IMG/VR virus record: IMGVR_UViG_3300043432_000071
Location: 1 to 41,379 of that record
Length of the DNA: 41,379 nucleotides
Source: a virus
Taxonomy: Duplodnaviria; Caudoviricetes
Direction: 5' to 3' (one strand)
Shown here: positions 16,667 through 33,311 of the stretch, in pieces
How positions within the stretch are numbered: position 1 is the stretch's first letter
How the letters are laid out: each line of letters starts with the position of its first letter
Position numbers and translations under genes: made by a program
The notes under the pieces: model-generated
What the model was told of the DNA's origin: nothing
The model's input: only the letters and a program-made list of their open reading frames with translations
The model's database searches: none

Positions 16667-18063
16667 CAGGGATTAAGCCTCACAAATCCGTAATCAGTTA
16701 TTATTCCCAGGCTCGCATGATTTGCACTAGGCTCGGCAGTAATTTTAAGAGCCAATGGCCCCGTGCTATCTTCGGCAATCCCGGCCAAACCGCTAGTAAT
16801 TGAGGCAAAGGCTGAATTTGTGCTAGATAGTCTAACGGTCGCGGCTGACACTTGAGCGTTAGTTGCCCCTGCGCCACTTACGTTGCAGTTAATAGTGCCG
16901 ACCAAATTGGAACCCGTTGAACCGTTACCCACTACCATCGCAGCCACTTCGGTTGTGCCGTAGTAACAACGGATGGTGATGATATTACCGCTTGTGTTAT
17001 CGTCGAAATCCTTGATTCTGAGATACATTTCCAGCGTAGAATTAGTACCAAGGGTATTGGCCGGAACCGTGTAACTGTATAGGTCTGTTTCTGACGTTGT
17101 GCTTCTAACTTCGGTGGTAGCAGTCGATTTATCTAAAATAGATACACCCGTCGAGGCGATGCCCATGCAAGTCTCTGTTCCAGCCGAGTCTTTGCCGCAA
17201 ATCTGGTTTGTTCCCGTCTTGGCGTATAGCCGCACCTTACCCGCTGCCGGCGATGAAGGTGCCGCAATAGCGGTATGATCCATGTAACCGCTGGCCGAGT
17301 TTGTGTTATCCAATACCTTATTTTGAACAGTATCGGCGCTAGTGGGTGTAAAGGTACTCGCGTTAATCGTGCAGTCGGTTCGGGTAGCCCCGGCATTATC
17401 GACACAAGCTACGCCGGTTCCGGTAAAGTTCACCTTAGCGCGTTGGGTCAAATCCGATGCCTCATCCTGAATCGTGCCATAGCCGGCACCCGGTTCGCCT
17501 TGCGGTCCTTGCGCCCCGGTAGCGTCGGCGGTTTCAAGCGCCGTTCCCGCAGCGTTCCAGCGAAGATACTTGCTTGCTGCTGGTTCAGGAAATGCGATGT
17601 CCTTGGTTGAAGATTGTTTAGCAAACTTTGGTGCCCGTCCAATTTGTTCAGCCTGCATCCGAGACTGCAAGGCTAAAAGGTCATAGTCTCTTTCCACGCG
17701 GGAACTAGGAAATCCTTCATTGAGCGTATAGGTCGATCCTTGGGTAATCGGCATTTTCAAAAGGATCGAAACCTTGTATCCGCTGGTCGGCGCAACGCCA
17801 AAGGTAACGCTTCCGCCGCCTGCGTCACCAATTCCCGAAACGGTGTAGTCCGTGTCCACCGTTTTTGTCGTTGCCGTGCCGCCTGTATCAGTGACAATAA
17901 CCTCAAGATGAGATTTATCGAAAATCCGGCAAGTGTAAACAAACGCAGTTCCGCCCGCCGCCGTGTAGTCGTTGCGGCCCGCGCAATCGTTGACGGTTCC
18001 ACGGCTGATAACCGGCAAACAAAGCAAAGATAAGATAAGAATAGTCCTAAATGCACTTCGCAT
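16666..18063 (-). CDS. Tail fibre with T7-gp17-like N-terminal attachment domain, preceded by a signal peptide
   Basis: SD AGGAG then ATG 18063: MRSAFRTILILSLLCLPVISRG|TVNDCAGRNDYTAAGGTAFVYTCRIFDKSHLEV...DYTVSG...FP...ERDYDLL; short collagen-like GAQGPQGEPG. Confidence 0.85.
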   Translation of the reverse strand: MRSAFRTILILSLLCLPVISRGTVNDCAGRNDYTAAGGTAFVYTCRIFDKSHLEVIVTDTGGTATTKTVDTDYTVSGIGDAGGGSVTFGVAPTSGYKVSILLKMPITQGSTYTLNEGFPSSRVERDYDLLALQSRMQAEQIGRAPKFAKQSSTKDIAFPEPAASKYLRWNAAGTALETADATGAQGPQGEPGAGYGTIQDEASDLTQRAKVNFTGTGVACVDNAGATRTDCTINASTFTPTSADTVQNKVLDNTNSASGYMDHTAIAAPSSPAAGKVRLYAKTGTNQICGKDSAGTETCMGIASTGVSILDKSTATTEVRSTTSETDLYSYTVPANTLGTNSTLEMYLRIKDFDDNTSGNIITIRCYYGTTEVAAMVVGNGSTGSNLVGTINCNVSGAGATNAQVSAATVRLSSTNSAFASITSGLAGIAEDSTGPLALKITAEPSANHASLGIITDYGFVRLNP

Positions 18064-18242: not shown

Positions 18243-18243
18243 A

Positions 18244-18939
18244 TTATACCCACTTACTGAGCAATGATGTCACTGGCGGAATTACCGCCCCGGCCATTGA
18301 ACCAACCGAAGTATATCCCGACGCTTCCATCGACCGGGTATCGGCTTCCATAGTCGCCATTTTGCGTGCTCGCGTTGCGTTTCTAACCGCCGTGTCTAAG
18401 TTGGCGAGCATCATCGTCAGTGGACTCCCGGAACTTGCTTCAATGCCTGATGCCGCCGCTATCGCATGGCCCTTGGCGGTAATTTCCTGGCCCTTTTCCA
18501 TTTCCTGCGCTGCACGCAACCGGCCTTGAGCGCGAAGCATTGCCGCCTCTGCGTTGGCCTGTCCTGCTGCCGAGAGCCGGGAACTGATACCGGATAGAAG
18601 TTGACCGCCACTTGATATTGCTTGCAACCAAGTCGGTATCGAGGCCATCAGACCGCCGCCAGCAGCAAGGGAACCTGCGGCCAAAGAACCAGCCGCCGTG
18701 GTGCCCATGATCGACGCCGCCGTGCCGCCGAGAGCAGCCGGCGCTATTGCCGCCGTTGCGCCAAGTACAGACCCTAAGCCACCTAGCGCACCCGCCGCCG
18801 CCGTACCCGCGACGGTTGCACCCGTGGCCGCTGCCGCCATTGCGCCGCCAGCCGCCGAAGCAGCTCCGATAGTGGCCGCCGTACCCGCTGCCGCCGATCC
18901 TATTCCTATCGCTGCCGGTATCGCCGCTAAAAATGGCAT
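18244..18939 (-). CDS. Small ejection protein (T7 gp14-like)
   Basis: Ala/Gly-rich hydrophobic N-terminus; AASGIEASSGSPL motif. Confidence 0.8.
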   Translation of the reverse strand: MPFLAAIPAAIGIGSAAAGTAATIGAASAAGGAMAAAATGATVAGTAAAGALGGLGSVLGATAAIAPAALGGTAASIMGTTAAGSLAAGSLAAGGGLMASIPTWLQAISSGGQLLSGISSRLSAAGQANAEAAMLRAQGRLRAAQEMEKGQEITAKGHAIAAASGIEASSGSPLTMMLANLDTAVRNATRARKMATMEADTRSMEASGYTSVGSMAGAVIPPVTSLLSKWV

Positions 18940-19388
18940 TAGCCGCCAACCTCACATTCATGGCGCTGGTACTCACGTCCATTAACCTCAAACCGTTCGG
19001 CTCTCGGCTTAAAGCCAAAAGATTGAATCCAACGTTGATTGCGCTGCGAAACAATAGCCGCTTCCGAATACATTTCTTTGATGCCGAAAATTTCCACGGT
19101 CCTCCGATAGTAGGTTTTGACCGTGCGGTGCAACCACAAAGGGTATGCTGCCAATTCATCCGAGATCATTACCCACGGATAACCTAACCCCGCACGCCAC
19201 ATGACCATGCCTCCACAGCCGACAATCTTGCCGCCAAGTTCTGCACTAAATGCAACGTGGCGATGGCGTTTTAGTATCTCGATCCCATCGAGAATGATCC
19301 ACGGCGGTTCGTTCTCGCGTGAGTGAAACGCTATCATGTGCCACAATTCAAATTTGACCAATGTTGGTTTACAGTCGTTCTCCGACAC
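18939..19388 (-). CDS. GNAT-fold protein (T7 gp13-like position)
   Basis: GKIVGCGG...GYPW...QRWIQSFGF; position after nozzle gene. Confidence 0.75.
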   Translation of the reverse strand: MSENDCKPTLVKFELWHMIAFHSRENEPPWIILDGIEILKRHRHVAFSAELGGKIVGCGGMVMWRAGLGYPWVMISDELAAYPLWLHRTVKTYYRRTVEIFGIKEMYSEAAIVSQRNQRWIQSFGFKPRAERFEVNGREYQRHECEVGG

Positions 19389-21642
19389 TTAGCTCTCCGA
19401 ACATGCAAAGGATTTCTTGCGGATAAGGCAAATCTTGTTCGATAGTCACCTTGCCTATCGTGTCCCAATCCGTGCCCTTGCAACGTATATCGCCCTCTAC
19501 CAACGAGGGAGCATGATCCATTGGTTGACCGCCCTTTGAAAAGTCTAAATCCTCGCCGTTAATCTTGCCGCCCAATGTGCGTTTAACGCGGAGATTGATA
19601 TTGTCCCAACGCCTCGGCACGCCTTCTATCACTGAATCCTGCATAGCGGGCCTCAAGGTGATACAAGTCGATTTGTAATGCAGGCCAATCTCGATACTGG
19701 ACGCCGCTATGGATAAATCGGTTGGTAAGGCACCGCTAGTGACGATCTGTTGTCCCTTGTAGGAACCATCGGCAATCACGTCCACGGTCTTTCCTTCAAG
19801 ATGATCTAGCCCCGTAACATGGGTTATAGCAGCGCCGTTATAGATAAATGCGCAATCGGTCTGAAGGTCTTGCCAGTCTCGGTCGCTAAACTCATCGGCG
19901 CAATCTTCGACAATCTCAATATACCGTTTTTCAATTCCATTGATCGTGCGTTTAACGAGCCACCAAGTTTGATCCCGGTCGCCGTCCGGGTGGGGAATCA
20001 CGCAATGACTTTCAATAATTCCATCCGTCGTGCGCCTAGTGAATCCGACAACATCCTCAGGCACGCGAAAATAAGTTAAACAAACTAGCTGACCGTCGTT
20101 GCGGATAAAATACAAGTGACGATTTGGTTCTTCGGCCCAAGCGATTTGATCCTGTTTGATGCCGCTCTCTCCGCAGATATGCTCAGAGTTACGAGTAAGG
20201 TCGAGAGCGCGAAAGGCGTTATCGTCAAAGTTATAGCTCAAGTCGATAATACGCCTACCGCTTGCCTGGACATAAATTCCTGTGGTTCCGATGATTACCG
20301 GAGCCATCGCCAACGTGCCGGGAGCGTTTTGAGCGCGGACAAAAGGAATCGTATCGCCGCCTAATGGTTGATCTACGCCCGGCCCTTTGGCGGCAAATAC
20401 GGCACCCTCCGTACCGATAAATAACTGACCAAGATCGGCAAGCCATCTAATCGCGTTTAGTTGCCGGGAAGTGATCGTGTACTGAATCGCGTAATCCGCC
20501 AACGCTCCCACAGCATAATTCTCATAACTGTCGCTTGCCGAACCTACCCAAGTCGTCGGATTGGTCGGGTTAGCGGCATGAATCAAGCGGCCTTGATAGA
20601 AAGTGTCAACAGCCGGAAAGCCGTGCGCCGTATCCCACATGGCAACTTCTAGCGTCCAATCGCCGCCAGGGCAGGCTTCAGGAACCGCCCCGGATGATGT
20701 CGCCTTGCTCAACGTAGCGCGAATAATACCCTTAACGGTCTGCGCATTAGTATATTCGGTAATTTCAATCAACCCGCCAAAGAGTTTGATAAACTTACCG
20801 ACATCAGCGGATCGAAACGTATCTTGACCAGCGCCGCCCGATGTTTCGCCTCCGACCGTAACCTTGCCGCCAACGGGTTTTTTCTTGGTGGCCTTGGCGT
20901 AGCTGCTCGGCGATTTATCAAGGAACCATTCCCCGGAAGCGATAGGGTTTGTGTCTGGAAAAGCGTCCAATATATCGCAAGTAGCAACCGCGTGCGGTGA
21001 CGCGCCACCAAGAGCCGTAATAACCGCACGGGAAGTGCCGTACATGATACTGCGGTCAATATCGCCGGTCAGAAAGACGGCAGCACCCGCCGTAAAGGCG
21101 ATGCCGGTCCCGGTTGTTGCTGCGGGAGTCAAGGTAGTTCCTAAATCGGTTCTATCCTCGAATGATGGCGGTGGCCGCAGAGCTAAATTAGTCTTTGCCC
21201 AAATCGTGTCGCTGGACCGGCTAATTTTAGCCGGGTGATGGCTCGGATGATCGAAAAAGTTTACATCAATAGACTGCGCCCAATTAAGATCGAATATCTG
21301 TTCTTCGGTGTAGGTCGTAGTAATTTCAACGGGAGAACCGCCTGACTCAACACGCCTCCCATTGCGATAAACGCGGATATAATTCTCGCCAACTTCCAAG
21401 ACATAGGCCGTCTTGCGGTTGACGATGAATGGAATCAATCGGACTTTTTTTGTCGAGTCTTTGACTTCGCCTACATAGCGCGTGCCTGGCGCACGATACA
21501 GACCGCCCTGGGGAAAGATCAAATAGTTTTCGCAAATAGATACGCCGTTGAAATACTTGGCAAGATCGGGTCGGCCTTCAAGCCTCGGCGAAAGCTCACC
21601 CGCGCTGAAATTGGTTTGCAGTTTTCTGGCCTTGGGCATCAA
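19369..21642 (-). CDS. Tail nozzle / tail tubular protein B (T7 gp12-like)
   Basis: QTNFSAGELSP, N..IFPQGGL.RAPGTRYV, FYQGRL, GLDHLEGKTV motifs. Confidence 0.92.
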   Translation of the reverse strand: MMPKARKLQTNFSAGELSPRLEGRPDLAKYFNGVSICENYLIFPQGGLYRAPGTRYVGEVKDSTKKVRLIPFIVNRKTAYVLEVGENYIRVYRNGRRVESGGSPVEITTTYTEEQIFDLNWAQSIDVNFFDHPSHHPAKISRSSDTIWAKTNLALRPPPSFEDRTDLGTTLTPAATTGTGIAFTAGAAVFLTGDIDRSIMYGTSRAVITALGGASPHAVATCDILDAFPDTNPIASGEWFLDKSPSSYAKATKKKPVGGKVTVGGETSGGAGQDTFRSADVGKFIKLFGGLIEITEYTNAQTVKGIIRATLSKATSSGAVPEACPGGDWTLEVAMWDTAHGFPAVDTFYQGRLIHAANPTNPTTWVGSASDSYENYAVGALADYAIQYTITSRQLNAIRWLADLGQLFIGTEGAVFAAKGPGVDQPLGGDTIPFVRAQNAPGTLAMAPVIIGTTGIYVQASGRRIIDLSYNFDDNAFRALDLTRNSEHICGESGIKQDQIAWAEEPNRHLYFIRNDGQLVCLTYFRVPEDVVGFTRRTTDGIIESHCVIPHPDGDRDQTWWLVKRTINGIEKRYIEIVEDCADEFSDRDWQDLQTDCAFIYNGAAITHVTGLDHLEGKTVDVIADGSYKGQQIVTSGALPTDLSIAASSIEIGLHYKSTCITLRPAMQDSVIEGVPRRWDNINLRVKRTLGGKINGEDLDFSKGGQPMDHAPSLVEGDIRCKGTDWDTIGKVTIEQDLPYPQEILCMFGELSVGERL

Positions 21643-22202
21643 TCATTCCTAATATCGTCCGTCAGAGCCGTACTACCGTAAATCCAGGCCGAACCCTCTT
21701 GCCCGTCCGCCGCTTGGGCATCATTCTTGAGCAGCATGTATTGCTCAAGCAATTTTAACGAAAAAGCCGCATCATGGCTAAACATGAGCGCAAAGCGGGA
21801 ACCAAGAAATGTTGAAAACATACTGACAAACAAGGCGTCCCACAGGTCGGGATTTCCGACCCGTTGAACGTATTTTGCCACAACTGCCGTTTCATCCGTA
21901 ACGATGTCTCTACCTTCCACTTGCCACACAGCATAGGGATTGTCGTTAACGCCTAAAACCCTCAAATCGAGGTCATCGCGCTTGTAGCCAAAAGCAAAAC
22001 CAGAAACAGGTGCAGGCGCGTTTTGCGCCAATTCTTTGCGAGCGATAGCGAAGTTCCACAGATGATCGCGCAAGACGGCATCACGCAACGGATGATAAAT
22101 CAATCGGCAACGACTTGACGTTGTATCCGTATCGTCAATATCGGTGATCGGGTCTTTGCCGGCCATCAACAAACCGAGATTCACTACATCCGTAGGAGTC
22201 AT
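21639..22202 (-). CDS. Tail adaptor / tail tubular protein A (T7 gp11-like)
   Basis: DVVNLGL...RDAVLRDHLWNFA...DALF...AQAADGQEG. Confidence 0.9.
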   Translation of the reverse strand: MTPTDVVNLGLLMAGKDPITDIDDTDTTSSRCRLIYHPLRDAVLRDHLWNFAIARKELAQNAPAPVSGFAFGYKRDDLDLRVLGVNDNPYAVWQVEGRDIVTDETAVVAKYVQRVGNPDLWDALFVSMFSTFLGSRFALMFSHDAAFSLKLLEQYMLLKNDAQAADGQEGSAWIYGSTALTDDIRND

Positions 22203-22203
22203 A

Positions 22204-22536
22204 TTATCCCTCGGTTACAAGTAACGCTTTGGTTCCTGTGCCGCCGTGGATGCAAGTTACCGGCACGGTGGGAACTACCGTGTCCATGAATAAGGTGCCA
22301 CCAGCCGCATTCAATCGAATCCCCTCATCAACCACAGCCACGCCACCCGTAAGATTACAATAAATTGTAGTGTCCGAATCGTTTTGGAGAATAAGGAGAC
22401 TGCGAATGCCCCGCGTCGTGCCTAGCACGGAGGTTGAAGCCGTTGTTACGTTGACAACGGTATGAATCGCTGTAATGCGTTCGGCACCCCAAGCAACCGA
22501 CGCTATCAACAGGAATGCCAACCACAATTTACGCAA
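22204..22536 (-). CDS. Small beta-sandwich virion decoration-like protein with signal peptide
   Basis: MRKLWLAFLLIASVAWG|AE; R.LLILQNDSDTTIY...GIRL motif of small phage structural proteins. Confidence 0.7.
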   Translation of the reverse strand: MRKLWLAFLLIASVAWGAERITAIHTVVNVTTASTSVLGTTRGIRSLLILQNDSDTTIYCNLTGGVAVVDEGIRLNAAGGTLFMDTVVPTVPVTCIHGGTGTKALLVTEG

Positions 22537-22972
22537 GGCCGTGATCCTTTTTGAACTGCTCGAAAGATTGCGCTATCTGATCTTTTTTCTGTTGGAGTGC
22601 CGCGATTTCAACGTTGAGTTCTTTAATGACCGACTGTTTATCGGCTCTAACTTGGTTGATCTCGTCGCGTAAACTTGCCAACTCCCCGCGCAGCGGATCG
22701 AGCGATGCCGAAAGCGAGTCCTTGAGCTTATCGTTGGCAACTTGAATATCGTTAGCCGCCTTAGTCGCTTCGGCAATCTTGGCTTGAGCGACACCACGCG
22801 CCGTTTCAAGTTCGCCAAGTTGTTTTTCGGCAGCGGTTTTTTGTTGCCCAAGAGCGACAAGTTGCTTTTCGGCCTGCTCGGCAGCGGCAACGATTTCGGC
22901 AGCAGCAAGCACAGCCGGTGCAAAATCAGCCATCGGCTTTAAGGCGTTTCTGATTTGTTCAGCGGTCAACAT
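22529..22972 (-). CDS. Coiled-coil protein
   Basis: Continuous heptad pattern over ~110 aa. Confidence 0.75.
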   Translation of the reverse strand: MLTAEQIRNALKPMADFAPAVLAAAEIVAAAEQAEKQLVALGQQKTAAEKQLGELETARGVAQAKIAEATKAANDIQVANDKLKDSLSASLDPLRGELASLRDEINQVRADKQSVIKELNVEIAALQQKKDQIAQSFEQFKKDHGLA

Positions 22973-22976
22973 ATTA

Positions 22977-23639
22977 TTACCTCCAATGTTCTCTTACCCA
23001 GGGTATCTGCTTCCAAATCTCGGCTGGCTTTGGGAAGCCGTGAAAAACATATATCGACGCGGTTTCTCTAAAATATCTCTCATTCTCCGGCCTATCCATG
23101 TAGTGTGTGCGAAAGCCGAGAATCTGGCCGGGAAACAATTCCTCAAGATACTCACCATCGGTGATTTGCTCGGTCAACCATTCTTGATCTGAGTACAGCC
23201 GTTTCATCACGTCATAGCCGTGCTCGTTGAAATTCTCCCATACATGCGTGTTCTCGCCTGGCCTAAGCGACCATATCGAACCGTTGTAGTATTTTTGCTC
23301 TGGACCGTATTGCCAATAGCCCAAGCCCGCAAACTTGCCGCGATAGTTTAATAGCCAGTCGATGTTGGCCGTGATGACAATATCTAAATCTAGGCACACT
23401 ATCTGATCGTCGTCGATACATTGCGGCGGCGCGAAAAGCGGGATCTTGTTCCACCACCCTTTGAGCATGTACGGCAATGGTCGTACCTCAATGCCCTCGG
23501 CTTCCAGTCCATCCGGCCTTTCCGTAAAGCAGGTAAACCGAAATGGCACCGTAGAATTGCGCTTGACCATATTGTAGAGCTTGGTCACATACTCAGGTTT
23601 ATAAAATCCTGAGTGTTTGATGCAGACGACGTTAGTCAC
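22977..23639 (-). CDS. GT-A fold glycosyltransferase
   Basis: YVTKLYNMVKRN...FTCFT, GWWNKIPLF, DLD (DxD) motif, YNGS, SDQEW, FHGFPKP. Confidence 0.9.
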   Translation of the reverse strand: MTNVVCIKHSGFYKPEYVTKLYNMVKRNSTVPFRFTCFTERPDGLEAEGIEVRPLPYMLKGWWNKIPLFAPPQCIDDDQIVCLDLDIVITANIDWLLNYRGKFAGLGYWQYGPEQKYYNGSIWSLRPGENTHVWENFNEHGYDVMKRLYSDQEWLTEQITDGEYLEELFPGQILGFRTHYMDRPENERYFRETASIYVFHGFPKPAEIWKQIPWVREHWR

Positions 23640-24207
23640 TGGGTTTCCCCGTTAATGCGATTAGCCTGCCGTCGCCTGAGTCGGAGAACTCCACATTCTT
23701 CCATCTCTTTGAAATTTTAGGCTTCCACCACTGCGACGGCTTGACGGTAAGGTGCAATGTCTCATGGATCTCATTGCCCCAACTCTCCGGCCAAAGTGCG
23801 ATTTGCAGAAACGCACCCTTACCCGTGATGACCCGGATATTGTCGAGTACCTTATCAACCTTGGACGGCGGTATATGTTCCAGCACGTCACAACAATACG
23901 CCCAATCATAGACGGGCATTGGCGGCAGTTCCCATAGACAGGCTTCTATAAAAGGCTTAGCAATGGAAGTTGGGTCTGGCGCTGCCACGGTGATGTCTAA
24001 GAACGTAACCGAGAGACCGGCATCGCGCAGTTTAGCACCGGCCCGCCCTGGACCGCAGCCAAGATCAATTAACGTATCTCCGCCCTGCCAGCCGGAGCGT
24101 CTAAGAAACTCAGGGACAAGACGCTCGCCCGGCGAATTACTGCGATAGCCGGGAACTTCGCGCCACATCCGGCGATATTTTTCGCGTTCCTTATCGAGCA
24201 AGTTCAT
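23632..24207 (-). CDS. Class I SAM-dependent methyltransferase
   Basis: LIDLGCGPG motif I; CCDVLEHIP; start MNLLDKEREKY at 24207. Confidence 0.9.
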   Translation of the reverse strand: MNLLDKEREKYRRMWREVPGYRSNSPGERLVPEFLRRSGWQGGDTLIDLGCGPGRAGAKLRDAGLSVTFLDITVAAPDPTSIAKPFIEACLWELPPMPVYDWAYCCDVLEHIPPSKVDKVLDNIRVITGKGAFLQIALWPESWGNEIHETLHLTVKPSQWWKPKISKRWKNVEFSDSGDGRLIALTGKPSD

Positions 24208-24407
24208 GTAGCGTCGTCGGCGCGACTTTCTACCCACTCGCCATAGTCCGGGTGAGTAGGAGAAAGGAATCGCTGAAATCGGCAAATAACGTTACCCGCG
24301 ATGCTGGTTGCAACGTGCGAATTTACCCAAGTACCATCCGCCATTTTCGCCTGCCCCCACGCTTCGGCGGTGTCACGACCCGCGTCTGTGTTTGCGTAAT
24401 TAGCCAT
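24204..24407 (-). CDS. Hypothetical protein
   Basis: 67-aa ORF with SD GGAGG, coupled to both neighbours. Confidence 0.65.
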   Translation of the reverse strand: MANYANTDAGRDTAEAWGQAKMADGTWVNSHVATSIAGNVICRFQRFLSPTHPDYGEWVESRADDAT

Positions 24408-24678
24408 TGTCGTTTACCTCCAACGAACACTTGCCCTCTTTTATCATTCTCGTCAATTCCATTTCTTCAGCCTTTGATCCATGCAGACAAAATCCGTCAA
24501 CGACATTGCCAAACTTATCTACGAGTTTGATCGGCATGTCGGTATAACGCCGCGCATGAACGGTGCAGTATGAAGCGTTGGGCAATCCTGGCACGCCGAT
24601 AAGTTTTAAGTTGACGCACTTAAAATCACCGATAAAACAACATGCGCCACACATATTACACGCGCCCTTCAAACTCAT
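24400..24678 (-). CDS. YkgJ/FliB-like CxxCxxCC cysteine-cluster protein
   Basis: CNMCGACC...C.NL...CTVHARR; start MSLKG at 24678. Confidence 0.8.
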   Translation of the reverse strand: MSLKGACNMCGACCFIGDFKCVNLKLIGVPGLPNASYCTVHARRYTDMPIKLVDKFGNVVDGFCLHGSKAEEMELTRMIKEGKCSLEVNDNG

Positions 24679-25271
24679 TCCATGCCTCCAAAGAAACTCT
24701 TTGACCAACCTGACATTGCACGAACGACGTTCTTGAAATCAGGCTTGTATTCCATTTCCTGTTTAATCGACGCCTGCGCTTTACAATAATCTTTGGATCG
24801 ACTTATCGTTTCCCAAAATCTTGGCGTGTCATCATTGGGACAACCGCATAAAACAATCGGTTGACAACCCATGAGATAAGCAATTTGCGCCGCAAACATT
24901 CCCGACAAACTCATAGTAGGCGTCAACTCTTTCCACTGATACCAAGGACGAACGCCATACAAACCGCCATCGTGAACGCGAAAATCGATGTTGCCATAAG
25001 ACGATCCGGTTGGATCGCGCCTAATGGCAACCCAAAAATCAAGACGGGCGGTGTGTAAACTAACAAAATGATCGAGCCGAGGAAGCAAAACGCCGACATC
25101 ATTAGCAGCAAAAGTGAGAGGATGCCCACCGAAAACAGAAGTCGCTCGATCAACCTCATCAAAAACCCCTCTTGCGCTGCCGGCTACTAGGGCGGGAGTA
25201 CCCGCCGCCGAGTCTATCAACTCCGCGACGTTCCCCCCGCCCACATAGCCCTTAGCTTCCCATTCCGGCAT
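24675..25271 (-). CDS. Maf/DUF115-like Rossmann-fold glycosyltransferase-type protein
   Basis: ALVAGSA...FAAND...SGMFAAQIAYLMGCQPIVLCG...VRAMSGW. Confidence 0.7.
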   Translation of the reverse strand: MPEWEAKGYVGGGNVAELIDSAAGTPALVAGSARGVFDEVDRATSVFGGHPLTFAANDVGVLLPRLDHFVSLHTARLDFWVAIRRDPTGSSYGNIDFRVHDGGLYGVRPWYQWKELTPTMSLSGMFAAQIAYLMGCQPIVLCGCPNDDTPRFWETISRSKDYCKAQASIKQEMEYKPDFKNVVRAMSGWSKSFFGGME

Positions 25272-25780
25272 TAGGAACCGGGAATAAAGAAGAACGTCCC
25301 GAACACCTTTTGCCCCGCCACCGGCGTTCCCGTTGCGCCGTAAGTCAACGTAACCGGAACATCCGTGGTCGGCGTGTAACCGTAACTCGCGCCATTGGGC
25401 AATCCGATTGCCGCCGTGGCGTCAAAGTCACTGGCAAGCATGTACTTGTTTGCCGTGGTGCCATCGCCGATTACCGGGGTCTGTCCGACGCCAGCCGAAG
25501 CCGATAGGCCGTCGCTTGACACGAACAAACCAATCCATTTCCAATTTCTCGGATGCTGGAAAAGTTTGACCACGCCGCTTACCGTGTCGGTGGTGCCGGT
25601 CGTATAAGTCCCGGCCCCTACGGTATGAGAGAAACAAATCGGCACGACGCGACCACCTTGGGAAGTTGCCGCGTATGGCAATTTATTTTCAACCGTATCG
25701 ACGTAGAACACCGACCGACTAGCCGATGCCGTTCCTACCTGACTTTTCAGGATTTTGAGTATTGATTGCAAAAACCTCAT
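25271..25780 (-). CDS. Head decoration/cement-like protein with amphipathic N-terminal leader
   Basis: Directly after the major capsid gene; GGRVVP...IGDG...KY beta-fold pattern; start MRFLQSILKILKSQVG at 25780. Confidence 0.7.
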   Translation of the reverse strand: MRFLQSILKILKSQVGTASASRSVFYVDTVENKLPYAATSQGGRVVPICFSHTVGAGTYTTGTTDTVSGVVKLFQHPRNWKWIGLFVSSDGLSASAGVGQTPVIGDGTTANKYMLASDFDATAAIGLPNGASYGYTPTTDVPVTLTYGATGTPVAGQKVFGTFFFIPGS

Positions 25781-25803
25781 AAACAAATCACCCCCAATCT
25801 TGG

Positions 25804-26835
25804 TTAATTTTCCTTACACTCTACCCGAACAACCGCGCCTTCCCACAAGCGGACTACGCCCATTGTCAGCGAGACATAGACCTGAATCTCGTTGTTGAGG
25901 TCAGGCCGCACCGCAATACTCGGCGTAATGTCCTGCGCGGAGCTAAAACCCACGCCTTCGCGTCCCATCGCAACGCAGTACCGGCTGGTCGTGACCGGAT
26001 CGAGCGGCCCCGGCAGCATGTTGACAAGAACCGCAGTGGTTTCGTCAACAACATCGGGAATCTGTACCCAATGCAAACCTTCCCAATCTATGCCGTCAGC
26101 GGTGCCGGCATCGTGAATCCTGTTCTGAGTGAAGTCAGAACTTGACGCCTGGGTGATTCCCAAGATGTCGGTTTCCTGGCCTGGGCCGTAGAACATAACC
26201 CGCGCTTTAGCCCCGGTGGGAACCGATGCCTTGCTGAGTAGCACATTGGCCGCAACGATAGTTGCCAACGTTAAGGCAGTCGTAGCCCCGCCAGCCGGGG
26301 TGATGGTATGAGCCGTGAGCATCGCCTGGGTTCCATAGGTCATCTGACCCGTGGTTCCCGATGTCGTTATGGTAGTGGCCGCGCCGATGGCCCCGTCGAT
26401 AATCGCCTTGTCGATAGTCTGCACGGCGGCAGCCGCGAGCAAATCGCGGTAGTCGCTTTGCGGTTCGATCAACATGCGCACCGCATCAACATTAGGCGAA
26501 AGCAAGATGCCGCCGCCTACGGTCTGCATGGTAGCGCCGCGCCGGGTATGATTCGGATTCAACTCTACCGTCTGGACGTGACGGCCAATCGGTTTCAAGA
26601 GTACGTTGCCGACCCGTTCCCAGGTGTCGATAACAGCCCTAACGCCGCTTCGCGTATTGCGAGCGCCAAGTTGAGGTTTTACCAATGCGGTCTGTTGCTG
26701 CATGGTCTGCAGCAACATGGGCGTAAACTGATGCACCCACGCCGCAGGAATAGAAATGCTGCCATGCTGGTTAGCCAGGACTTTCCAGCCCAGGCTAAAG
26801 ACGCCAAGCAGCCAACTGAGAAAATAGTTGAACAT
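25804..26835 (-). CDS. Major capsid protein with 25-aa N-terminal leader
   Basis: AWVHQF...QQ, NHTRR, RMLIEPQSDY, IDKAII, SSDF, MGVVRL.EGAVV; SD AAAGGAG then ATG 26835. Confidence 0.92.
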   Translation of the reverse strand: MFNYFLSWLLGVFSLGWKVLANQHGSISIPAAWVHQFTPMLLQTMQQQTALVKPQLGARNTRSGVRAVIDTWERVGNVLLKPIGRHVQTVELNPNHTRRGATMQTVGGGILLSPNVDAVRMLIEPQSDYRDLLAAAAVQTIDKAIIDGAIGAATTITTSGTTGQMTYGTQAMLTAHTITPAGGATTALTLATIVAANVLLSKASVPTGAKARVMFYGPGQETDILGITQASSSDFTQNRIHDAGTADGIDWEGLHWVQIPDVVDETTAVLVNMLPGPLDPVTTSRYCVAMGREGVGFSSAQDITPSIAVRPDLNNEIQVYVSLTMGVVRLWEGAVVRVECKEN

Positions 26836-26855
26836 AGATAGCTCCTTTCGTTTTC

Positions 26856-27029
26856 TCCCGATCATCGGCAGGAATCGGGACTGTCTCGGTGAAGCTGCCC
26901 CTTGCGGGACTTCGCCTTGCTCTGCGTGAGCAACGGACCTGCTTTCAGGTCAGCCACCGGGACTCGAAAGAGCTACCCCGGAATAGAGGTTTAACCCTCC
27001 GTGCTAGGCACCCGTGATGCGCCCAGCAC
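26856..27029 (-). ncRNA. Structured cis-regulatory RNA in the capsid leader
   Basis: Consecutive hairpins at 26856-26880, 26888-26916, 26917-26933, 26936-26951, 26957-26981 and 27001-27029. Confidence 0.65.
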
Positions 27030-27039
27030 GCAGGATTAG

Positions 27040-27192
27040 TCAGACGTGAGCGCCCGCCTTTCTAGCCTTGGAAAAGGCAATGGCTTCCAACATCTTCTCC
27101 TTCTTTTTCCCCTTCATGCGCGCTGGTACGGTCGAGGGGATCTTATGATGAACTTCGCGCATCATGCGGGATAGAATACTATCCTTAGCCAT
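27040..27192 (-). CDS. 50-aa basic protein (DUF6496-like)
   Basis: MAKDSILSRMMREVHHK...KMLEAIAFSKARKAGAHV; AIA.S.ARKAG motif. Confidence 0.7.
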   Translation of the reverse strand: MAKDSILSRMMREVHHKIPSTVPARMKGKKKEKMLEAIAFSKARKAGAHV

Positions 27193-27411
27193 TTAATCTT
27201 CTTCCCGTTCGTCGCGGCGAAGTGGCCGTTTCTCCCTTTCCCTGCGCCGCTGGTGGCTTTCGACGACTTCGGGTGGTGCGCCGACGATCTGCACAATCTT
27301 GTCCTTGCTGTAACCACGGTCAATCATGCGGTTAATGGCGTTGACGATGTTGGGATTTTCCGTGTCAACAACGCCGCTTTGAAAAATAATCGGCTTTACT
27401 TCAACAGCCAT
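27193..27411 (-). CDS. Hypothetical protein, HTH-like
   Basis: SD GGAGG; INRMIDRGYSKDKIVQIVGAPPEVV. Confidence 0.65.
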   Translation of the reverse strand: MAVEVKPIIFQSGVVDTENPNIVNAINRMIDRGYSKDKIVQIVGAPPEVVESHQRRREREKRPLRRDEREED

Positions 27412-27419
27412 GTTACCTC

Positions 27420-28259
27420 CTATATCGTGGTTTCGCCGGGATGGGCCTTAGCCATCAGACCGGCAACGTAATCCTTAGTTGCCTGATCGCCTTTCCAGAA
27501 AAGATCATGCTTATCGTTTTTCGGGTTTCGGATAATGTCGTTGGCTTCTTGGGCAGCGTCCAGGTTGCCTGCGCCGGCGTTATCTCCTGCTCCCATAAAT
27601 CCGTTATCTCCTTCTCCATTCTTGCCTATCCAGTGAAAGATTTTCAAGAGCGCCGGATGATTGCCTAAGCCGGTCTTGTCCATCCAGGCTTTCGCCTCCG
27701 GTATCTGTTCGTAGAGCTTTGCCGCAGCTCGGCCCGCATACTCGGCGTTGTTGTCATAGTCCACGCCCCATTCTTTGCGCAAAGTGGCGTCGGCCATCGT
27801 GGCGTCGGCAATCATGCCGCCGGCCATTTCGCCCATAAGCTCAGTATGAAAGGCCAACGCCGCTTTGGCTTGGTCTGAGGTAAATCCGTTTTTGTGAAAA
27901 AACTCGCGGGCTTTTGCCGAATACTCGTCTTTCCACGTTACGCCATGAGGCAATGTCTCCGGCGCTTTGACTTCATACTTGTCGGCGGAATCGGGCGGGG
28001 CGGTGAATAATCCGGCCTGATAAAGTTTCTGTTTGAGCGCAACGATTTCTTCCGGTTTAGCATCCTTGCCCGGAAGATTGATCGCGTTGCCCAAGCGCCG
28101 CGACAAATGAACATGACTTTTGATAAGCGAAGTCACGTCCTTCTCTGGAATCCTATCCAGGTGCGGGGCAATTTCAGTGTCAGCCTTCAACGACTCCGCG
28201 AAAGGATGCCAGTCAACGCCCTTAGCGCCATTACCTAAATCAATTTCCTGAACTTCCAT
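27420..28259 (-). CDS. Capsid scaffolding/assembly protein
   Basis: LIKSHVHL, P.S.DKY, LRKEWG.DYD, GLGNHP.L.K motifs; between portal and capsid. Confidence 0.85.
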   Translation of the reverse strand: MEVQEIDLGNGAKGVDWHPFAESLKADTEIAPHLDRIPEKDVTSLIKSHVHLSRRLGNAINLPGKDAKPEEIVALKQKLYQAGLFTAPPDSADKYEVKAPETLPHGVTWKDEYSAKAREFFHKNGFTSDQAKAALAFHTELMGEMAGGMIADATMADATLRKEWGVDYDNNAEYAGRAAAKLYEQIPEAKAWMDKTGLGNHPALLKIFHWIGKNGEGDNGFMGAGDNAGAGNLDAAQEANDIIRNPKNDKHDLFWKGDQATKDYVAGLMAKAHPGETTI

Positions 28260-28513
28260 TATTTAGCCTCCGGGTTTTCTACTCTGTCAAACCTCTCGAT
28301 AATCTGCTGTATCACTTCCCGCGCTCCATTGTGCGCTGCCAACTTCAAGGCATCCGTAGTGGCTACCGTACTCATATAGTAATCCGCGAATAGCCATTCC
28401 AAAACCGTTCTGCCGAGCGGTGTCGAGAACGTGACGTGAACGGCGTAGTCCAAGTCTTTGCTTTCGATTTCCGGTCGTCTTAGCCATCGCTGAAAGTAGG
28501 GTATCCATTTCAT
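28259..28513 (-). CDS. Bbp19-like small protein
   Basis: TFSTPLGRTVLEWL...NGAREVIQQI motif after portal. Confidence 0.75.
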   Translation of the reverse strand: MKWIPYFQRWLRRPEIESKDLDYAVHVTFSTPLGRTVLEWLFADYYMSTVATTDALKLAAHNGAREVIQQIIERFDRVENPEAK

Positions 28514-30207
28514 GCGTTGCCCGCCACTCCTACGTTTTGCAAACTCGTAATAAGCGGAGCGACGTTGCGCGCGGCCTCACTGCCCGCCTGGATCTGTGCC
28601 ATCTGATTTACTTCCTGGCGGGCCTGGGTGCGGGCTTGGCGTTTTTCATCGCGTACTTGCTCACTGACAATAACGCTTTCGGGTAGTCCGTAGGTCTTGG
28701 CGATAAACCGCATCGCTTTGTCTTGGTCGAAGTTGTCTTTTAGGTCGGTGATCGCCTGGGGATCGTTCTGGCCTAACACGGGGATCGCGGAGAAAGTCTT
28801 TAATACGCCGTCAACCTCTTGGGCCTTTTGAGCCAGGGCGAGTGGAGAGGTAAATTCGATTTGGATTTCCTTGACCTCATCGAACAACTCCGGCGGTGGT
28901 GGCGGCAAGGCGCTGGCATCCCACATGAGCGTAAAAACGCCATCCCAAAGCGGAGCCAAAAAGTCGGACTCGTAGCGCCCGTAAACCGCGCCAAGTATGC
29001 GGTACATGAGTTCCAGCTTACGGGCAAACTCGAAAGCGGTCATTTCGGATTTTTCTACTTTAAGCAAAGCCCGGAGAATATCGACAAAGAAAAGCTCGTT
29101 GATGGATTGGCGTAACTGTTCTTCCTTGACGTTAGCCATTTGGTAGTTAGGACTGGTTTCAAGGGCCTGTAGAACGTCCTTGACGCTGCGTTGCGAGCCG
29201 GTCTTGACGATGCTGCGGCCTGCCGGGCGTAACTCAATATCGCCTAGCACGGAATCACTGGCCTGGATGAGTGGCTTTCTAACGTCGATTGCCAAGGCTT
29301 CCAGGTCTAGTTTTTTCGCTTCATTCAAGCTGCGGGTATCGGGGAATGCTCTATCGCCTGGGCCGCGACCGGGAATCTCGCCCGGCGTAACTTCCCATCG
29401 GGGATTAGCAAAGGGATAGAACTTATACCCGCTTTCCCTGACAAGTTCCTTTGATTCTTTTTCTACCCAACATGAAGCGTAGGGATAGGATAAAGTGCCC
29501 CGGCCTTTATATTCGGACTTGGGTCGTGGATAGGCGGCATGAATAAAAGTAAATTTCTTTTCCTGGTCGGCCCCCGCGCGAAAATAACTTTTCACGTCGG
29601 CCGGCAACGCGGCATCGCCGAATTTAGCGCGTGCCGCCCTAACCGACATTTCCTGTTCGCGGTATTCCTTATCAATCTTCCCCTCGGCGTCGGTAGCGTT
29701 AAAGAAACGCCCGGTCTTGGTAGCCTGGAATCTAAGACCGCGAAAACCCCCGCGCCGGCTCTCATACTCGCTGGCGTATTCCTTGCGTTCGTCGAAGTGC
29801 AAACTTCCGGTGCCGAATCCGGTATAGTCCTTGGTCATGTCGGGAGCTTCGGCGTAGAAGTTGGACGCTCCGATTGCCTTTAGCATCTTCTCGGTTACTT
29901 CATCGCACCAATCGTCAATGTCGTCGCGTTCGCCAATGCTAAATCGCTTAGCCGTGATTCTGCCCCACCGTTGGCCGGGGCTAAAGGTCGAACTGGAAAT
30001 AAACTTGGACAACAAATCGTTAGCGCCCATCGTGGTCGAGTCATAGACATCGCGCAATTGATTCTGCCCCGGCGTAGTGCCACCCAGGATGCCTATTCGG
30101 GATGGGTCGATAAACGGCGCTTGCAAATCCCAACGGGTAAGGAAATTGGCGTAATGGTCACGCACATTGCCATAATCGCGCATTATCGCTTTGCCATCGG
30201 CCATCAT
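28510..30207 (-). CDS. Portal (head-to-tail connector)
   Basis: YDST, SNFY, FGTG, PRW...GE..GRGPG..A.PD..LN, MTA.E, IEFTSPLALAQK. Confidence 0.95.
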   Translation of the reverse strand: MMADGKAIMRDYGNVRDHYANFLTRWDLQAPFIDPSRIGILGGTTPGQNQLRDVYDSTTMGANDLLSKFISSSTFSPGQRWGRITAKRFSIGERDDIDDWCDEVTEKMLKAIGASNFYAEAPDMTKDYTGFGTGSLHFDERKEYASEYESRRGGFRGLRFQATKTGRFFNATDAEGKIDKEYREQEMSVRAARAKFGDAALPADVKSYFRAGADQEKKFTFIHAAYPRPKSEYKGRGTLSYPYASCWVEKESKELVRESGYKFYPFANPRWEVTPGEIPGRGPGDRAFPDTRSLNEAKKLDLEALAIDVRKPLIQASDSVLGDIELRPAGRSIVKTGSQRSVKDVLQALETSPNYQMANVKEEQLRQSINELFFVDILRALLKVEKSEMTAFEFARKLELMYRILGAVYGRYESDFLAPLWDGVFTLMWDASALPPPPPELFDEVKEIQIEFTSPLALAQKAQEVDGVLKTFSAIPVLGQNDPQAITDLKDNFDQDKAMRFIAKTYGLPESVIVSEQVRDEKRQARTQARQEVNQMAQIQAGSEAARNVAPLITSLQNVGVAGNA

Positions 30208-30392
30208 TCACCAAAGGTCGTCTTGCCGCCGTAGTTAGCCGCCATGTCGGAAAGGGTCGAGCTTAACCTAGTTGACGCCGCCCCACGCCCGGAACGCAGC
30301 CGCGCCGCCTCGGCTGCACGGGCTTCCTGCTCCTGCTTACTAGGCATGATTTTAGTCGAGGGCGGTTTAGGGGATGAAAATAAACTTGGCAT
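30204..30392 (-). CDS. Small virion protein preceding portal
   Basis: LFSSPKPP...RGAAST...KTTFG pattern typical at this locus. Confidence 0.75.
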   Translation of the reverse strand: MPSLFSSPKPPSTKIMPSKQEQEARAAEAARLRSGRGAASTRLSSTLSDMAANYGGKTTFGE

Positions 30393-31811
30393 TTACCACT
30401 CCGATAACACGCGGCTGTTCTGATTGCGATAGTTGCGTTCAAAAACGTTGAAGTCGGCCAGGACTTTACTGGGCCTAAGAGTGTCAAAATTGTCGATCTC
30501 ATCAATCGTGGTAGCTAGGGCTTGAAACGCCGCCGCCCCGTGACTCGCCCAATCGTGCAACGGTCTATCCTCAAACTTCCGTATGTCCTCCCGGTATACT
30601 TTTTGGTAGTTTCTAAGCGCCTTAACCCCACGTTCGCATCTAGGAACATTGAACCAACAGCGCGGCAATAATGCCCGCACGGCGTGAATGGCCTCTCCCT
30701 GCATCTCACCTAACCTTAGCCGGGGAGCTACCACGATATTTTTAAGGCCCAGGGTTTCAAGGAAGGTCTTGCGGGTCTGGCCTAGAGCCAAGTCGTGAAC
30801 CTCAACGTCATGCGGCATGACATGATAACCGTAAGAGTACGGCAATTCCTGCAACGTCTTTGACCAGCCGAGCAAACTCTTGTTATTTTCCTCCATGTAG
30901 TCGATAACGCGAATGCCGTCACGATCCTTTTGATAAAACCAAATGGCCGTTGAATCGTCCCAACCCAAGTCCCACGCGGTGTGAACCGGGAGGCGCGGTT
31001 CGTAGGCAAACTCCTTCATCCGTCCCTGGGTTTCGAGATCAACGACATACTTCAAATAATAAGCGCCCTGCAAAGCGCCACGGAACGAACAGTAGTATTC
31101 CTGCGCTATCATGTCATCGGACATGCCTTCGCGCCGTTCCGCCTCGATGTCCTCCGGGGTAAGCACGGGCTTACCGTTTTCCCCAGGACTATCCCGCAAT
31201 GTCGTGTCAACCGTTTGCAGAGAGGCAAACCATTCCTTATCCTTCTTTGCCATTTCAAACAATTCATACCCGTGGTTCTCGCCCCTTGGCGTGTAACAGA
31301 AAATCGCCCACCCGCCGTTTTCTCTCAAGATAGGCCGGAGCAAAGTCCAGGCTCTAGGGTCTTGGATCGAATACTCGGAGAATACGCAGCCAACGGGGTT
31401 GGGGCCGACGAGGTTATCAAGATTGCGGTCGGTACCTACCACCTGCCAGATACTACCGTTAGCAAGTTTAATCTGCATTTCATCATTAACCTTGGCCGCT
31501 ATCTGGCTCTCAGGGAAATGAGACAAGAACGGCTTGCCATCAGAACCAATGCCGTCCCATATCGCTTTTTTGCCCTGGGCGTAGGTGGGAAAAAGATGAT
31601 AGTAAACGCCGATACGCTTAAACATTTCCTTGACGGTTATGTTCAAAGCCAACTTATCCTTGCCGCTGCGCCGATGCCAGACCCAGGCATGACGCTTCAG
31701 GCCGTAATCAAACGCCCCCCATGCCTCCATCTGATAAGAACGGGGAGAAAAATTATAGGGAATGGAAATCCGCTGTTCCTGACGACGCCTGGGCGTTGGG
31801 TAACGAGCCAT
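30393..31811 (-). CDS. terL: Terminase large subunit
   Basis: PRSYQ adenine-binding motif, WHRRSGKD Walker A, VFSE Walker B, YTPRG, QEYYCSF, AWDLGWDDST nuclease motif, HDWASH. Confidence 0.97.
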   Translation of the reverse strand: MARYPTPRRRQEQRISIPYNFSPRSYQMEAWGAFDYGLKRHAWVWHRRSGKDKLALNITVKEMFKRIGVYYHLFPTYAQGKKAIWDGIGSDGKPFLSHFPESQIAAKVNDEMQIKLANGSIWQVVGTDRNLDNLVGPNPVGCVFSEYSIQDPRAWTLLRPILRENGGWAIFCYTPRGENHGYELFEMAKKDKEWFASLQTVDTTLRDSPGENGKPVLTPEDIEAERREGMSDDMIAQEYYCSFRGALQGAYYLKYVVDLETQGRMKEFAYEPRLPVHTAWDLGWDDSTAIWFYQKDRDGIRVIDYMEENNKSLLGWSKTLQELPYSYGYHVMPHDVEVHDLALGQTRKTFLETLGLKNIVVAPRLRLGEMQGEAIHAVRALLPRCWFNVPRCERGVKALRNYQKVYREDIRKFEDRPLHDWASHGAAAFQALATTIDEIDNFDTLRPSKVLADFNVFERNYRNQNSRVLSEW

Positions 31812-31857
31812 AGGCTTGTTTTATTTTAGCGCATCTAGGATGATGCTTTGCCGCCCA

Positions 31858-31998
31858 TTATAAACAGTTGTTTTGAGATTGCTTGTTCTTCACCGCCGTA
31901 AGTTTGTCCTGAATCTGATTCATCTTTTTTGCCGCCTTATCTAAGTCCCTCTCCAACTTTTTGCGCTGTGCGGCAAGTTTCTTACACAGCTTAGTCAT
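31858..31998 (-). CDS. 46-aa basic coiled-coil microprotein
   Basis: MTKLCKKLAAQRKKLERDLDKAAKKMNQIQDKLTAVKNKQSQNNCL; SD GAGGTG. Confidence 0.65.
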   Translation of the reverse strand: MTKLCKKLAAQRKKLERDLDKAAKKMNQIQDKLTAVKNKQSQNNCL

Positions 31999-32035
31999 AA
32001 ATCACCTCAAATTACTAACACCGTTCTACAATCCC

Positions 32036-32105
32036 CATATACCCGTTTATCGGATCTGTCAAATAAAATTTGACTTGGCGGGTAAGGGAAGATAAAAACA
32101 GTCCT
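32036..32105. promoter_or_regulatory. Back-to-back divergent sigma70-like promoters
   Basis: Plus strand TTGACT (32070-75), 17 nt, TAAAAA (32093-98); minus strand TTGACA (32057-62) facing terL, with a weak -10. Confidence 0.55.
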
Positions 32106-32321
32106 ATGAAAATCTCCCCACCTCGTAAAAACCAAGGCAAGCCCAAAGGCGGTTGGCGTCCCAAAATGCGCTTGCATATACGCGACAGGGCCAACAACTT
32201 CCGCTACGGCATCGTTCCTAAGCCCTACCAGCCTATGCCCTATGCCCCGGTCAGGACTTGGGCGGATATGACGCCTGCGGAGCAGGATGAGATAAGAAGG
32301 CGGTTAGGGGTGAAACTATGA
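32106..32321 (+). CDS. Basic hypothetical protein
   Basis: MKISPPRK...RTWADMTPAEQDEIRRRLG; ATGA-coupled to next gene. Confidence 0.65.
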   Translation: MKISPPRKNQGKPKGGWRPKMRLHIRDRANNFRYGIVPKPYQPMPYAPVRTWADMTPAEQDEIRRRLGVKL

Positions 32322-32512
32322 AAACTAAACTACTGCTGTTGGCCTTGGCCTTGTCGTCTTGCGGCCTGCCCCCAGGTAGCCTGGACAACGCCTTGAGGCA
32401 ATGCGGGCCGGATTGCTTTAGCCGGCCTACCTCCTTCGATAGGCAAGTCCAAGAGAACGATCGACGCTATATCCTGAATGAACTAGACAAGGCTAGGTTG
32501 AAAGGCCGTTAG
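32318..32512 (+). CDS. Small lipoprotein (possible superinfection exclusion)
   Basis: MKTKLLLLALALSSC lipobox. Confidence 0.7.
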   Translation: MKTKLLLLALALSSCGLPPGSLDNALRQCGPDCFSRPTSFDRQVQENDRRYILNELDKARLKGR

Positions 32513-32722
32513 ACCTAACTTTTTTAGGTTTAAGGCGGTTGGGACAAAATGAAATGGAACAAGTGCCGAGAGGCGAACTTTACTTTTTTAGGTTTTGAGG
32601 CTTTTTGGGCTTAGCGGGTGAGGGAGGGGACCTATCGACCAAATCAGGCCGAACCAAAAGCCCCCCACCCCCCATCGAAAATCGTCCTACCCAAGTCTAG
32701 GCTCGATCCCTCGAAATATGGA

Positions 32723-32751
32723 ACGTCTGATAATGTTCCATTATGTCAACT
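32723..32751 (+). other. dif-like XerC/XerD recombination site
   Basis: ACGTCTGATAA-TGTTCCA-TTATGTCAACT vs E. coli dif GGTGCGCATAA-TGTATA-TTATGTTAAAT; intergenic. Confidence 0.75.
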
Positions 32752-32753
32752 CG

Positions 32754-33311
32754 CTACCCTTGATTTGATTGAGAAATCGTTTTCCTAACGATCGTTCTAG
32801 TCTTGGCCTTATTTTCTGAAGCTATTTCCACGGTAGGATTAACTAATTTAGGCTCTTTCCGGGCCTCTAGCATGCGCTGATAGTGCCGCTTGAAGTCAAC
32901 GACTTCGATCTTAACCGTAATGTTGCCGCTCACGTTGACGTTATCAGACCGGCCCCACCGATCCCTGAAGCGTCGCTCAAGCAAAGTAGCGTGGGGGACG
33001 AACGAATTGCCACCCTTTAGCATGGCCTGGATAGCCTTAAACTCCCCTTCAGCTTCAGCTTTTTCCAGCTTCCCCCAAAACGTATAATACGGCTCCCTCT
33101 CCCTATCCGCCAATTCCTTCCATCTGTAATACTGTTTTGGCCTAACCCCAACTAGCGTAAAGCTCCGCTCGATATACATGCCGATACTTATAGCGTTAAT
33201 CAGCTTGTCTTGTAGTTCGGGGTCAAGGTCAAATAGCGGAGGTCTGCCAGTCCTGCGCTTCGCCGGTCCTGCGCTTGCCCTTGCTATTGCTACATCTGCC
33301 GCTTCACTCAC
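32754..33311 (-). CDS. terS: Terminase small subunit-like HTH protein
   Basis: GRPPLF...LINAISIG...VGV...YYRW...KAEAEGE...LLERRFRDRWG; upstream of terL; probable GTG start 33311. Confidence 0.75.
   Translation of the reverse strand: MSEAADVAIARASAGPAKRRTGRPPLFDLDPELQDKLINAISIGMYIERSFTLVGVRPKQYYRWKELADREREPYYTFWGKLEKAEAEGEFKAIQAMLKGGNSFVPHATLLERRFRDRWGRSDNVNVSGNITVKIEVVDFKRHYQRMLEARKEPKLVNPTVEIASENKAKTRTIVRKTISQSNQG

Follow-up and report, generated by a model that had tools for sequence, protein, structure and literature searches.

Two adjacent head genes of a tailed virus begin with short N-terminal leaders that end in glycine, and the question is why they do so and what removes the leaders. 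The window, which at 41,379 nt comprises the whole virus record IMGVR_UViG_3300043432_000071, carries a major capsid gene whose leader ends ANQHG, followed by SISIP, and adjoining it a cement (decoration) gene whose leader ends KSQVG, followed by TASAS. An earlier note on this DNA had read both as prepilin-like leaders that hold the head proteins at the inner membrane until the host prepilin peptidase releases them. Comparison with related loci indicates that the leaders end exactly where leaderless relatives start and are very probably removed at the glycine; that a peptidase of family A24 (the PilD/TadV enzymes) does the cutting is the somewhat favoured assignment.

Profile and fold searches confirmed the capsid and specified its neighbor, which the earlier note had taken for a head protein. 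The capsid matched PF19821 with 112.3 bits (cut-off 25), and its model shows an HK97 fold with the LME-1 capsid as the top fold match (9eg4, E = 3e-16). The second protein matched the cement proteins of KHP30 (7dn2, E = 0.0015) and Pam1 (7eel, E = 0.0043) by profile, and its model matched 7eel (E = 7e-6), GP4 (8h89, E = 1.5e-4) and 7dn2 (E = 2.3e-4). The second gene thus encodes a capsid-cement protein, for which binding to the capsid surface is predicted from fold and position. In the ESM Atlas, the leader gave only leads below 0.9, and the cement protein only unnamed viral clusters. A strong Shine-Dalgarno (SD) sequence, described in the earlier note for the capsid gene, precedes each leader (Table 1), and, as noted there, neither gene has a methionine at the leader junction; a further in-frame ATG upstream of the capsid start, at 26865, lacks a comparable ribosome-binding site. 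Helices are predicted for residues 2-21 of the capsid leader, with a low-confidence junction at residues 23-25, and for residues 2-13 of the cement leader.

To judge from their codons, the leaders are translated and under selection at the protein level. Between close sisters with and without a leader, the SD and ATG are unchanged, and the leader itself accounts for the difference as a clean indel that preserves the frame (L003 versus L005, L006, L013 and L070). Among four cement leaders, the six pairwise comparisons contain 20 synonymous and no non-synonymous codon differences, and the remaining nine cement-leader pairs have three non-synonymous differences each. At the leader end, Gly is encoded by any of its four codons, and Arg at P2, the position before the Gly at P1, is encoded by CGN in 16 of 16 cases and never by AGR; the Gly codon counts come from a table of 30 rows that includes four false ones (L005, L028, L045, L096) and one of another leader type (L129). 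The E-R-G ending is therefore not a translated SD motif.

The alignment of homologues that the earlier note had suggested as a check bore out a conserved Gly-ended leader. The 93 close capsid homologues comprise 63 leaderless, 17 extended and 13 partial sequences, and each of the 17 extensions has its terminal Gly in register with the initiator Met of the leaderless relatives, the usual capsid start at which the note had placed the leader end. Sixteen of the 17 carry a leader of the window's type, and one (P0090) has a more hydrophobic type. A further 148 capsids, mostly distant, include 138 leaderless and four partial sequences and six extended ones; among the six, the extension is of the window's type in three, ends in F followed by A in two (P0207, P0228) and is unclear in one. 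For the cement protein, 32 of the 34 homologues, the window's included, carry a leader; the other two start with Met in its place, and 32 of 32 extensions end in Gly at that point. Directly after the initiator Met, the 63 leaderless close capsids have S (42), A (11) or P (10), all of which permit its removal.

Over 52 leaders, which have a median length of 16 residues and a median charge of +2, the motif consists of L at P6 (35), S/E/N/G/D at P4 (49), Q/E at P3 (38), R at P2 (35) and G at P1, where the Gly count is partly by construction, while the capsid register count is not. The pattern K-[VI]-L-x-[NS]-Q-x-G proposed earlier thus holds in the window but not for the family, whose motif is L-x-[SENGD]-[QE]-R-G. 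Leader length runs from 12 to 56 residues, aside from one six-residue row that is probably a late start call. The amphipathicity claimed for both leaders was upheld by a shuffle test for the cement leader (p = 0.004) but was not significant for the capsid leader alone (p = 0.15), and p fell below 0.05 for 15 of the 52 leaders. A pattern scan of both strands of 1.47 Mb of related loci gave 19 matches, 15 of them capsid or cement starts; the leader profile run over 3192 N-termini placed capsid or cement proteins in all of the top 28 rows, mostly training rows or near copies. The leader is carried by the high-copy capsid and cement proteins and not by the portal, scaffold, adaptor or nozzle.

Other N-terminal extensions were seen in the same loci. 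A third, hydrophobic and Gly-ended type occurs on capsids (P0090; L129, about 9850-10001), and the cement gene of L053 (11030-11539) has a short possible extension. In L012 (4775-6472), G437 and G426, the terminase large subunit is longer by about 100 residues at its N-terminus; those of L012, a Nitrospira prophage, and G437 start with a helix ending N-Q-A-G, either a leader or the start of a domain, with a weak leader-profile score of 8.5 bits.

Sequence comparison further indicates an optional leader, gained and lost on each gene independently of the other. It is present in 17 of 80 full-length close capsids as opposed to 32 of 34 close cement proteins, and the nearest capsid to that of the window, 92% identical, is leaderless. 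On a tree of 106 capsids with the leaders removed, a quick tree from which the counts were taken, there are 19 state changes, at least 11 of them forced by well-supported branches. The 61 informative loci divide into five with both leaders, five with the capsid leader only, five with the cement leader only and 46 with neither (15 of 76 loci were uninformative, and L004, capsid positive, and L051, cement negative, were set by hand), giving an association between the two leaders with a Fisher p of 0.007 that is inflated by kinship. Because gain and loss are frequent, the leader is not a switch that assembly requires. On the virion proteins of this lineage, host-cleavable leaders appear to arise repeatedly.

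We compared the leaders with class III leaders (type IV, Flp and TadE pilins, cut by the A24 enzymes PilD and TadV) from Nitrospirota loci, of which 65 were extracted and 64 used after one mis-parsed host row was dropped. A matrix of positions P7-P2 built from these distinguished 51 phage leaders (P0115 was dropped) from 8000 internal Gly sites with an area under the curve (AUC) of 0.964, which sustains the resemblance proposed earlier; the AUC by class was 0.942 for type IVa, 0.916 for TadE-like and 0.907 for Flp leaders. Forty of the 51 scored above the 95th percentile, and the two leaders of the window reached percentiles 99.5 and 99.1. The phage leaders have Gly at -1, are short and net positive with pilin-type residues from -2 to -7, and share with class III leaders, as far as these are described in the accessible texts, a basic character, a hydrophobic P6 and an [NSDE]-[EQ]-[RK]-G end (PMC3244431, PMC10117864), as well as small or hydroxyl residues directly after the cut. 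They differ in that the hydrophobicity lies within the leader and the mature product is a soluble virion protein. The membrane affinity of the phage leaders far exceeds that of host pilin leaders, with Wimley-White medians of +3.4 (capsid) and +1.9 (cement) versus -1.0 to -2.4 for host leaders, the rows being related. The anchor, it seems, has changed sides, from after the cut site to before it.

Two other known signal classes were considered for the head leaders and rejected. Sec signals cut by signal peptidase I have small residues at -3 and -1; 38 of the 52 head leaders have Q or E at P3, and a hydrophobic core is mostly missing. The sites in the window, G|S and G|T, are also not of the F|A type cut by the staphylococcal protease Prp.

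These features can be combined into a model in which the leader stages the head proteins at the inner membrane and is removed there by a host PilD-type peptidase. The amphipathic leader would form a helix along the cytoplasmic side of the inner membrane, replace the missing pilin helix and offer the Gly site to the cytoplasm-facing aspartates of PilD; those of FlaK are reported to face the cytoplasm (PMC4985597). The cut would leave a Ser or Thr start identical to the one that leaderless relatives obtain by losing their Met. The capsid N-arm and the cement N-terminus are described as meeting at the outer three-fold interface of solved relatives (PMC9698820), and the site could therefore be reachable on subunits or proheads, which would be staged on the membrane and released by the cut. 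The leader might tune the place or time of head assembly without being essential, in this last respect like the dispensable Prp leader on the capsid of phage 80alpha. Taken as a whole, we hold this model to be a serious possibility that falls a little short of probable. A wider version is rather unlikely: PilD would have a second, inverted substrate class of soluble proteins anchored by an amphipathic leader, the lineage would mature its virion via PilD (heads, at the cytoplasmic face) and signal peptidase I (exported tail fibres), and it might also jam the maturation of pilins, and through it its own receptor, by means of its most abundant proteins.

Several observations, from the substrate to the host, weigh against cutting by PilD. 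Eleven of the 51 leaders score under the 95th percentile, and P2-P4 vary (H, V, T and A occur at P2; C, V, N and S at P3). The specific label Flp-like is weakened, as the leaders are no closer to Flp than to type IVa by AUC. The pilin hydrophobic helix and E5, conceded as absent in the earlier note, are indeed missing: lacking are the transmembrane stretch after the site and the Glu or Asp at +5 of class III substrates (in Flp also Tyr at +6). After the Gly, the best 15-residue hydropathy is at most 0.93, as compared with at least 2.38 for host pilins, which the filter had selected for values of at least 2.2; Glu at +5 occurs in one of 51 leaders and Asp at +5 in five of 20 capsids, and the +5 residues of the window are Pro and Ser. 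PilD reportedly tolerates changes at +1 and +5, though not at Gly -1. Class III signal peptides are defined by a cut before a hydrophobic stretch (PMC3244431), so the phage leaders are not members by definition, though they may work likewise. Moreover, in the accessible text on FlaK, short site-spanning peptides were left uncut, and the authors considered a substrate transmembrane helix likely to be needed (PMC4985597). The result is not decisive because those peptides had no membrane anchor; it weakens the model without settling the question. The earlier proposal that capsid assembly is tied to a host envelope protease may stand as a link, but not as an obligatory checkpoint, given that the leader is optional and changeable.

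On the host side, the Nitrospirota are the candidate hosts of this phage, likely a nitrifier group, and the A24 family PF01478 was found in 120 of 121 Nitrospirota genomes. Loci with this capsid type numbered only four in 185,579 GTDB genomes, which belong without exception to the other main clade, lack the leader and show 40-44% identity; three are in Nitrospira or Nitrospiraceae, one lying within a 3.07-Mb chromosome, and PF01478 was detected in just one of the four genomes. No CRISPR-spacer-like match to positions 21380-41379 of the window was found in 401 genomes. The 3.07-Mb Nitrospira chromosome (G001, locus L011) carries its leaderless prophage with no PF01478 match.

The alternative that survives best retains the cut at Gly and assigns it to another enzyme, either an unrecognised host protease (Prp-like, natural substrate not known) or a divergent phage protease. 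We consider it unlikely, though a real competitor: the Gly register argues for removal by whatever enzyme, the missing helix is problematic for A24 enzymes as they are described (PMC4985597), differently made Gly-ending leaders occupy the same slot (P0090, L129), and a very divergent phage protease could escape our searches, one more point against a host peptidase. Opposed to it is the fit of P7-P2 to the host pilin leaders, and no window gene is shared by leader-bearing and absent from leaderless members across 20 genomes or loci. The absence of a recognisable phage protease, as first noted, persisted in wider searches: Pfam detected no A24 peptidase in the window or in 42 related virus records (six of them at least 90% complete), and a custom Nitrospirota PilD/TadV profile with a GxGD motif scan over 173 loci and genome pieces gave a best E of 0.027, in a terminase. 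Scanning for A24 genes of phages turned up two loci, both unrelated. When the host was examined for natural substrates with a leader-only profile, 121 genomes yielded noise-level matches and no significant substrate class (best E 0.56). The scaffold bears a PHROG "protease" label, but only G57 and Y95 are invariant in 65 rows, without an invariant catalytic set, and the protein is present regardless of leaders; its rejection as the protease rests on this conservation. Likewise, a gene for a 63-residue two-helix protein (3315-3506) was rejected as a universal peptidase, having a homologue in one of 20 genomes or loci (G414).

This 63-residue membrane protein, encoded on the minus strand in the lysis region and also in L147 (7846-8049), has conserved acidic residues and a GH[FL]FW end, and it matched no PHROG or NCBIfam family. 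Among the noise-level matches of the leader profile is a soluble 521-residue host open reading frame (L265, in G024), whose start helix ends D-E-R-G-T.

A second alternative is that the leader is retained, as a permanent amphipathic prohead-membrane anchor or a virion surface helix with the Gly as a flexible hinge. Solved relatives have their capsid N-arms and cement N-termini on the outer surface (PMC9698820), where a kept helix could fit, and an uncleavable 80alpha capsid is reported to still yield viable phage (PMC5744158). A hinge, however, does not call for [SENGD]-[QE]-R preceding the Gly in two proteins that are unrelated, and the leader end is fixed exactly at the Met register in spite of the wide range in length; hundreds of exposed hydrophobic helices would also be expected to make virions sticky. 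We regard retention as improbable.

Similarly improbable is the reading of the leaders as PilD decoys, by which abundant head proteins would occupy the enzyme, stall pilin maturation and remove possible receptor pili, and thus exclude superinfection. The restriction of the leader to two high-copy head proteins speaks for it, as does its optional and often changing presence, which is expected of a conflict trait; poor substrates may act as inhibitors, and some podophages are reported to require type IV pili (bioRxiv 10.64898/2026.02.16.706137). Late expression limits the benefit, however, and the effects on receptor and piliation are hypothetical. Least of all can the leaders be an annotation artefact, in which translation starts downstream or GAG-AGG-GG, an SD, happens to encode E-R-G: the missing junction start codon, the strong SD before the leader ATG, the CGN codons, the free choice of Gly codons, the purely synonymous differences among four leaders and the SD and ATG kept by leaderless sisters largely refute it.

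The closest precedent for cutting by a host PilD-type peptidase is the one cited in the earlier note, and it is sound as far as the accessible text goes: the host protease Prp cuts the leaders of the 80alpha capsid and scaffold at F|A, and pre-cleaved and uncleavable capsids both give normal titres (PMC5744158). Both systems have a short N-terminal head-protein leader that copies the site of a host substrate, both have it on non-homologous proteins in different phages, and in both the capsid leader is dispensable. In contrast to Prp, a soluble ribosome-maturation protease with an F|A site, the present sites are of the pilin type G|S/T, the leader seeks the membrane, the cement protein rather than the scaffold is the second carrier, and the cut is predicted. 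The F-then-A extensions of the distant PF19821 capsids P0207 and P0228 lie at the same register and resemble the Prp site as described (PMC5744158). In gene order, HK97-fold capsid and beta-sandwich cement protein, the window agrees with the podophage heads of Pam1 (7eel), GP4 (8h89) and KHP30 (7dn2), its capsid being closest to those of LME-1 (9eg4) and pelagiphage HTVC010P. Unlike the window, LME-1 and GP4 lack such a leader: the LME-1 chain aligns from residue 1, and the traced capsid and cement chains of GP4 are reported to begin at residue 2 (PMC9698820).

That a host protease trims the head proteins of tailed phages is documented for Prp in staphylococci, where the purpose is unclear (PMC5744158). 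A search by title and abstract found no paper on pilin-type leaders on such proteins, most subscription papers lying outside the literature searched. If PilD does cut, it would be the second host enzyme known to trim tailed-phage head proteins, and an A24 membrane peptidase would process soluble proteins without a pilin helix, against the current view of substrate recognition. As a new route of head maturation, this would connect the assembly of phage heads with the pilus pathway of a host group that is likely nitrifying. The question lends itself to a direct test, since there are natural sister pairs with and without a leader whose capsids are 92% identical and whose SD and start codon do not differ.

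The window belongs to a podophage distantly related to HTVC010P. Its minus strand encodes terminase, portal, a Bbp19-like gene, scaffold, capsid and cement genes, tail and ejection genes, and lysis genes (Table 1).

Table 1. Coordinates of the head-gene leaders and associated features in the window.
Feature	Position	Strand	Basis or remark
Major capsid protein, 343 aa including leader, HK97 fold, PF19821 / phrog_3437	25804..26835	-	Profile and fold search
Capsid leader, 25 aa, ending N-Q-H-G	26761..26835	-	Predicted cut after Gly (codon 26761-26763)
Capsid ribosome-binding site AAAGGAG	26842..26848	-	6 nt upstream of ATG 26835
Cement (decoration) protein, 169 aa including leader, beta-sandwich	25271..25780	-	Profile and fold; Pam1/GP4/KHP30 type
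Cement leader, 16 aa, ending S-Q-V-G	25733..25780	-	Predicted cut after Gly (codon 25733-25735)
Cement ribosome-binding site GGGGGTGAT	25787..25795	-	6 nt upstream of ATG 25780
Portal (head-tail connector, PF12236)	28510..30207	-	Profile; without leader
Terminase large subunit	30393..31811	-	Profile searches
Scaffold-slot protein	27420..28259	-	Without leader; PHROG label "protease"
Sec-signal-like tail-fibre leader, 22 aa, hydrophobic, ending S-R-G	17998..18063	-	Sequence comparison with relatives

The final 56 bases of the window duplicate positions 146-201 and adjoin a tandem repeat, and the window is therefore close to complete (CheckV 85%). The tandem repeat, of a 9-bp type, covers both ends (1-201 and 41088-41379), codes for an Ala/Ser/Arg-rich protein and differs in copy number from end to end. 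The window sequence is present in freshwater metagenomes, with no RNA dataset among those listed; a single contig of run X1 covers the stretch with 0 differences and is possibly the source of this DNA, hence not independent.

Past the cement gene lies a conserved block (22977-25271, minus strand) coding for a 198-residue unknown protein, a CxxCxxCC protein (24400-24708), a 67-residue protein, a methyltransferase and a glycosyltransferase, possibly virion-modifying. Between the capsid and cement genes, L021, L071, L139 and L142 carry a gene that we take, from its motif, to be HNH/LAGLIDADG-like, and the window has a HicB-type antitoxin gene at 33450-33908 (minus strand).

Signal-like N-termini also occur on other late genes. 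The hydrophobic signal of the tail-fibre gene (16666-18063, minus strand) ends exactly where most relatives start, and a Sec-type signal is present in the window and, counted by eye, in three of 13 distinct full relatives (L159, L168, L038), independently of the capsid leader. By implication, a tail fibre would be exported or trimmed at the membrane. Signal-peptide-like N-termini were further seen on the window genes at 22204-22533, 8408-12298 and 3944-6478 (minus strand), and a run of genes with such N-termini occupies 12092-20540 of the Nitrospira prophage L012.
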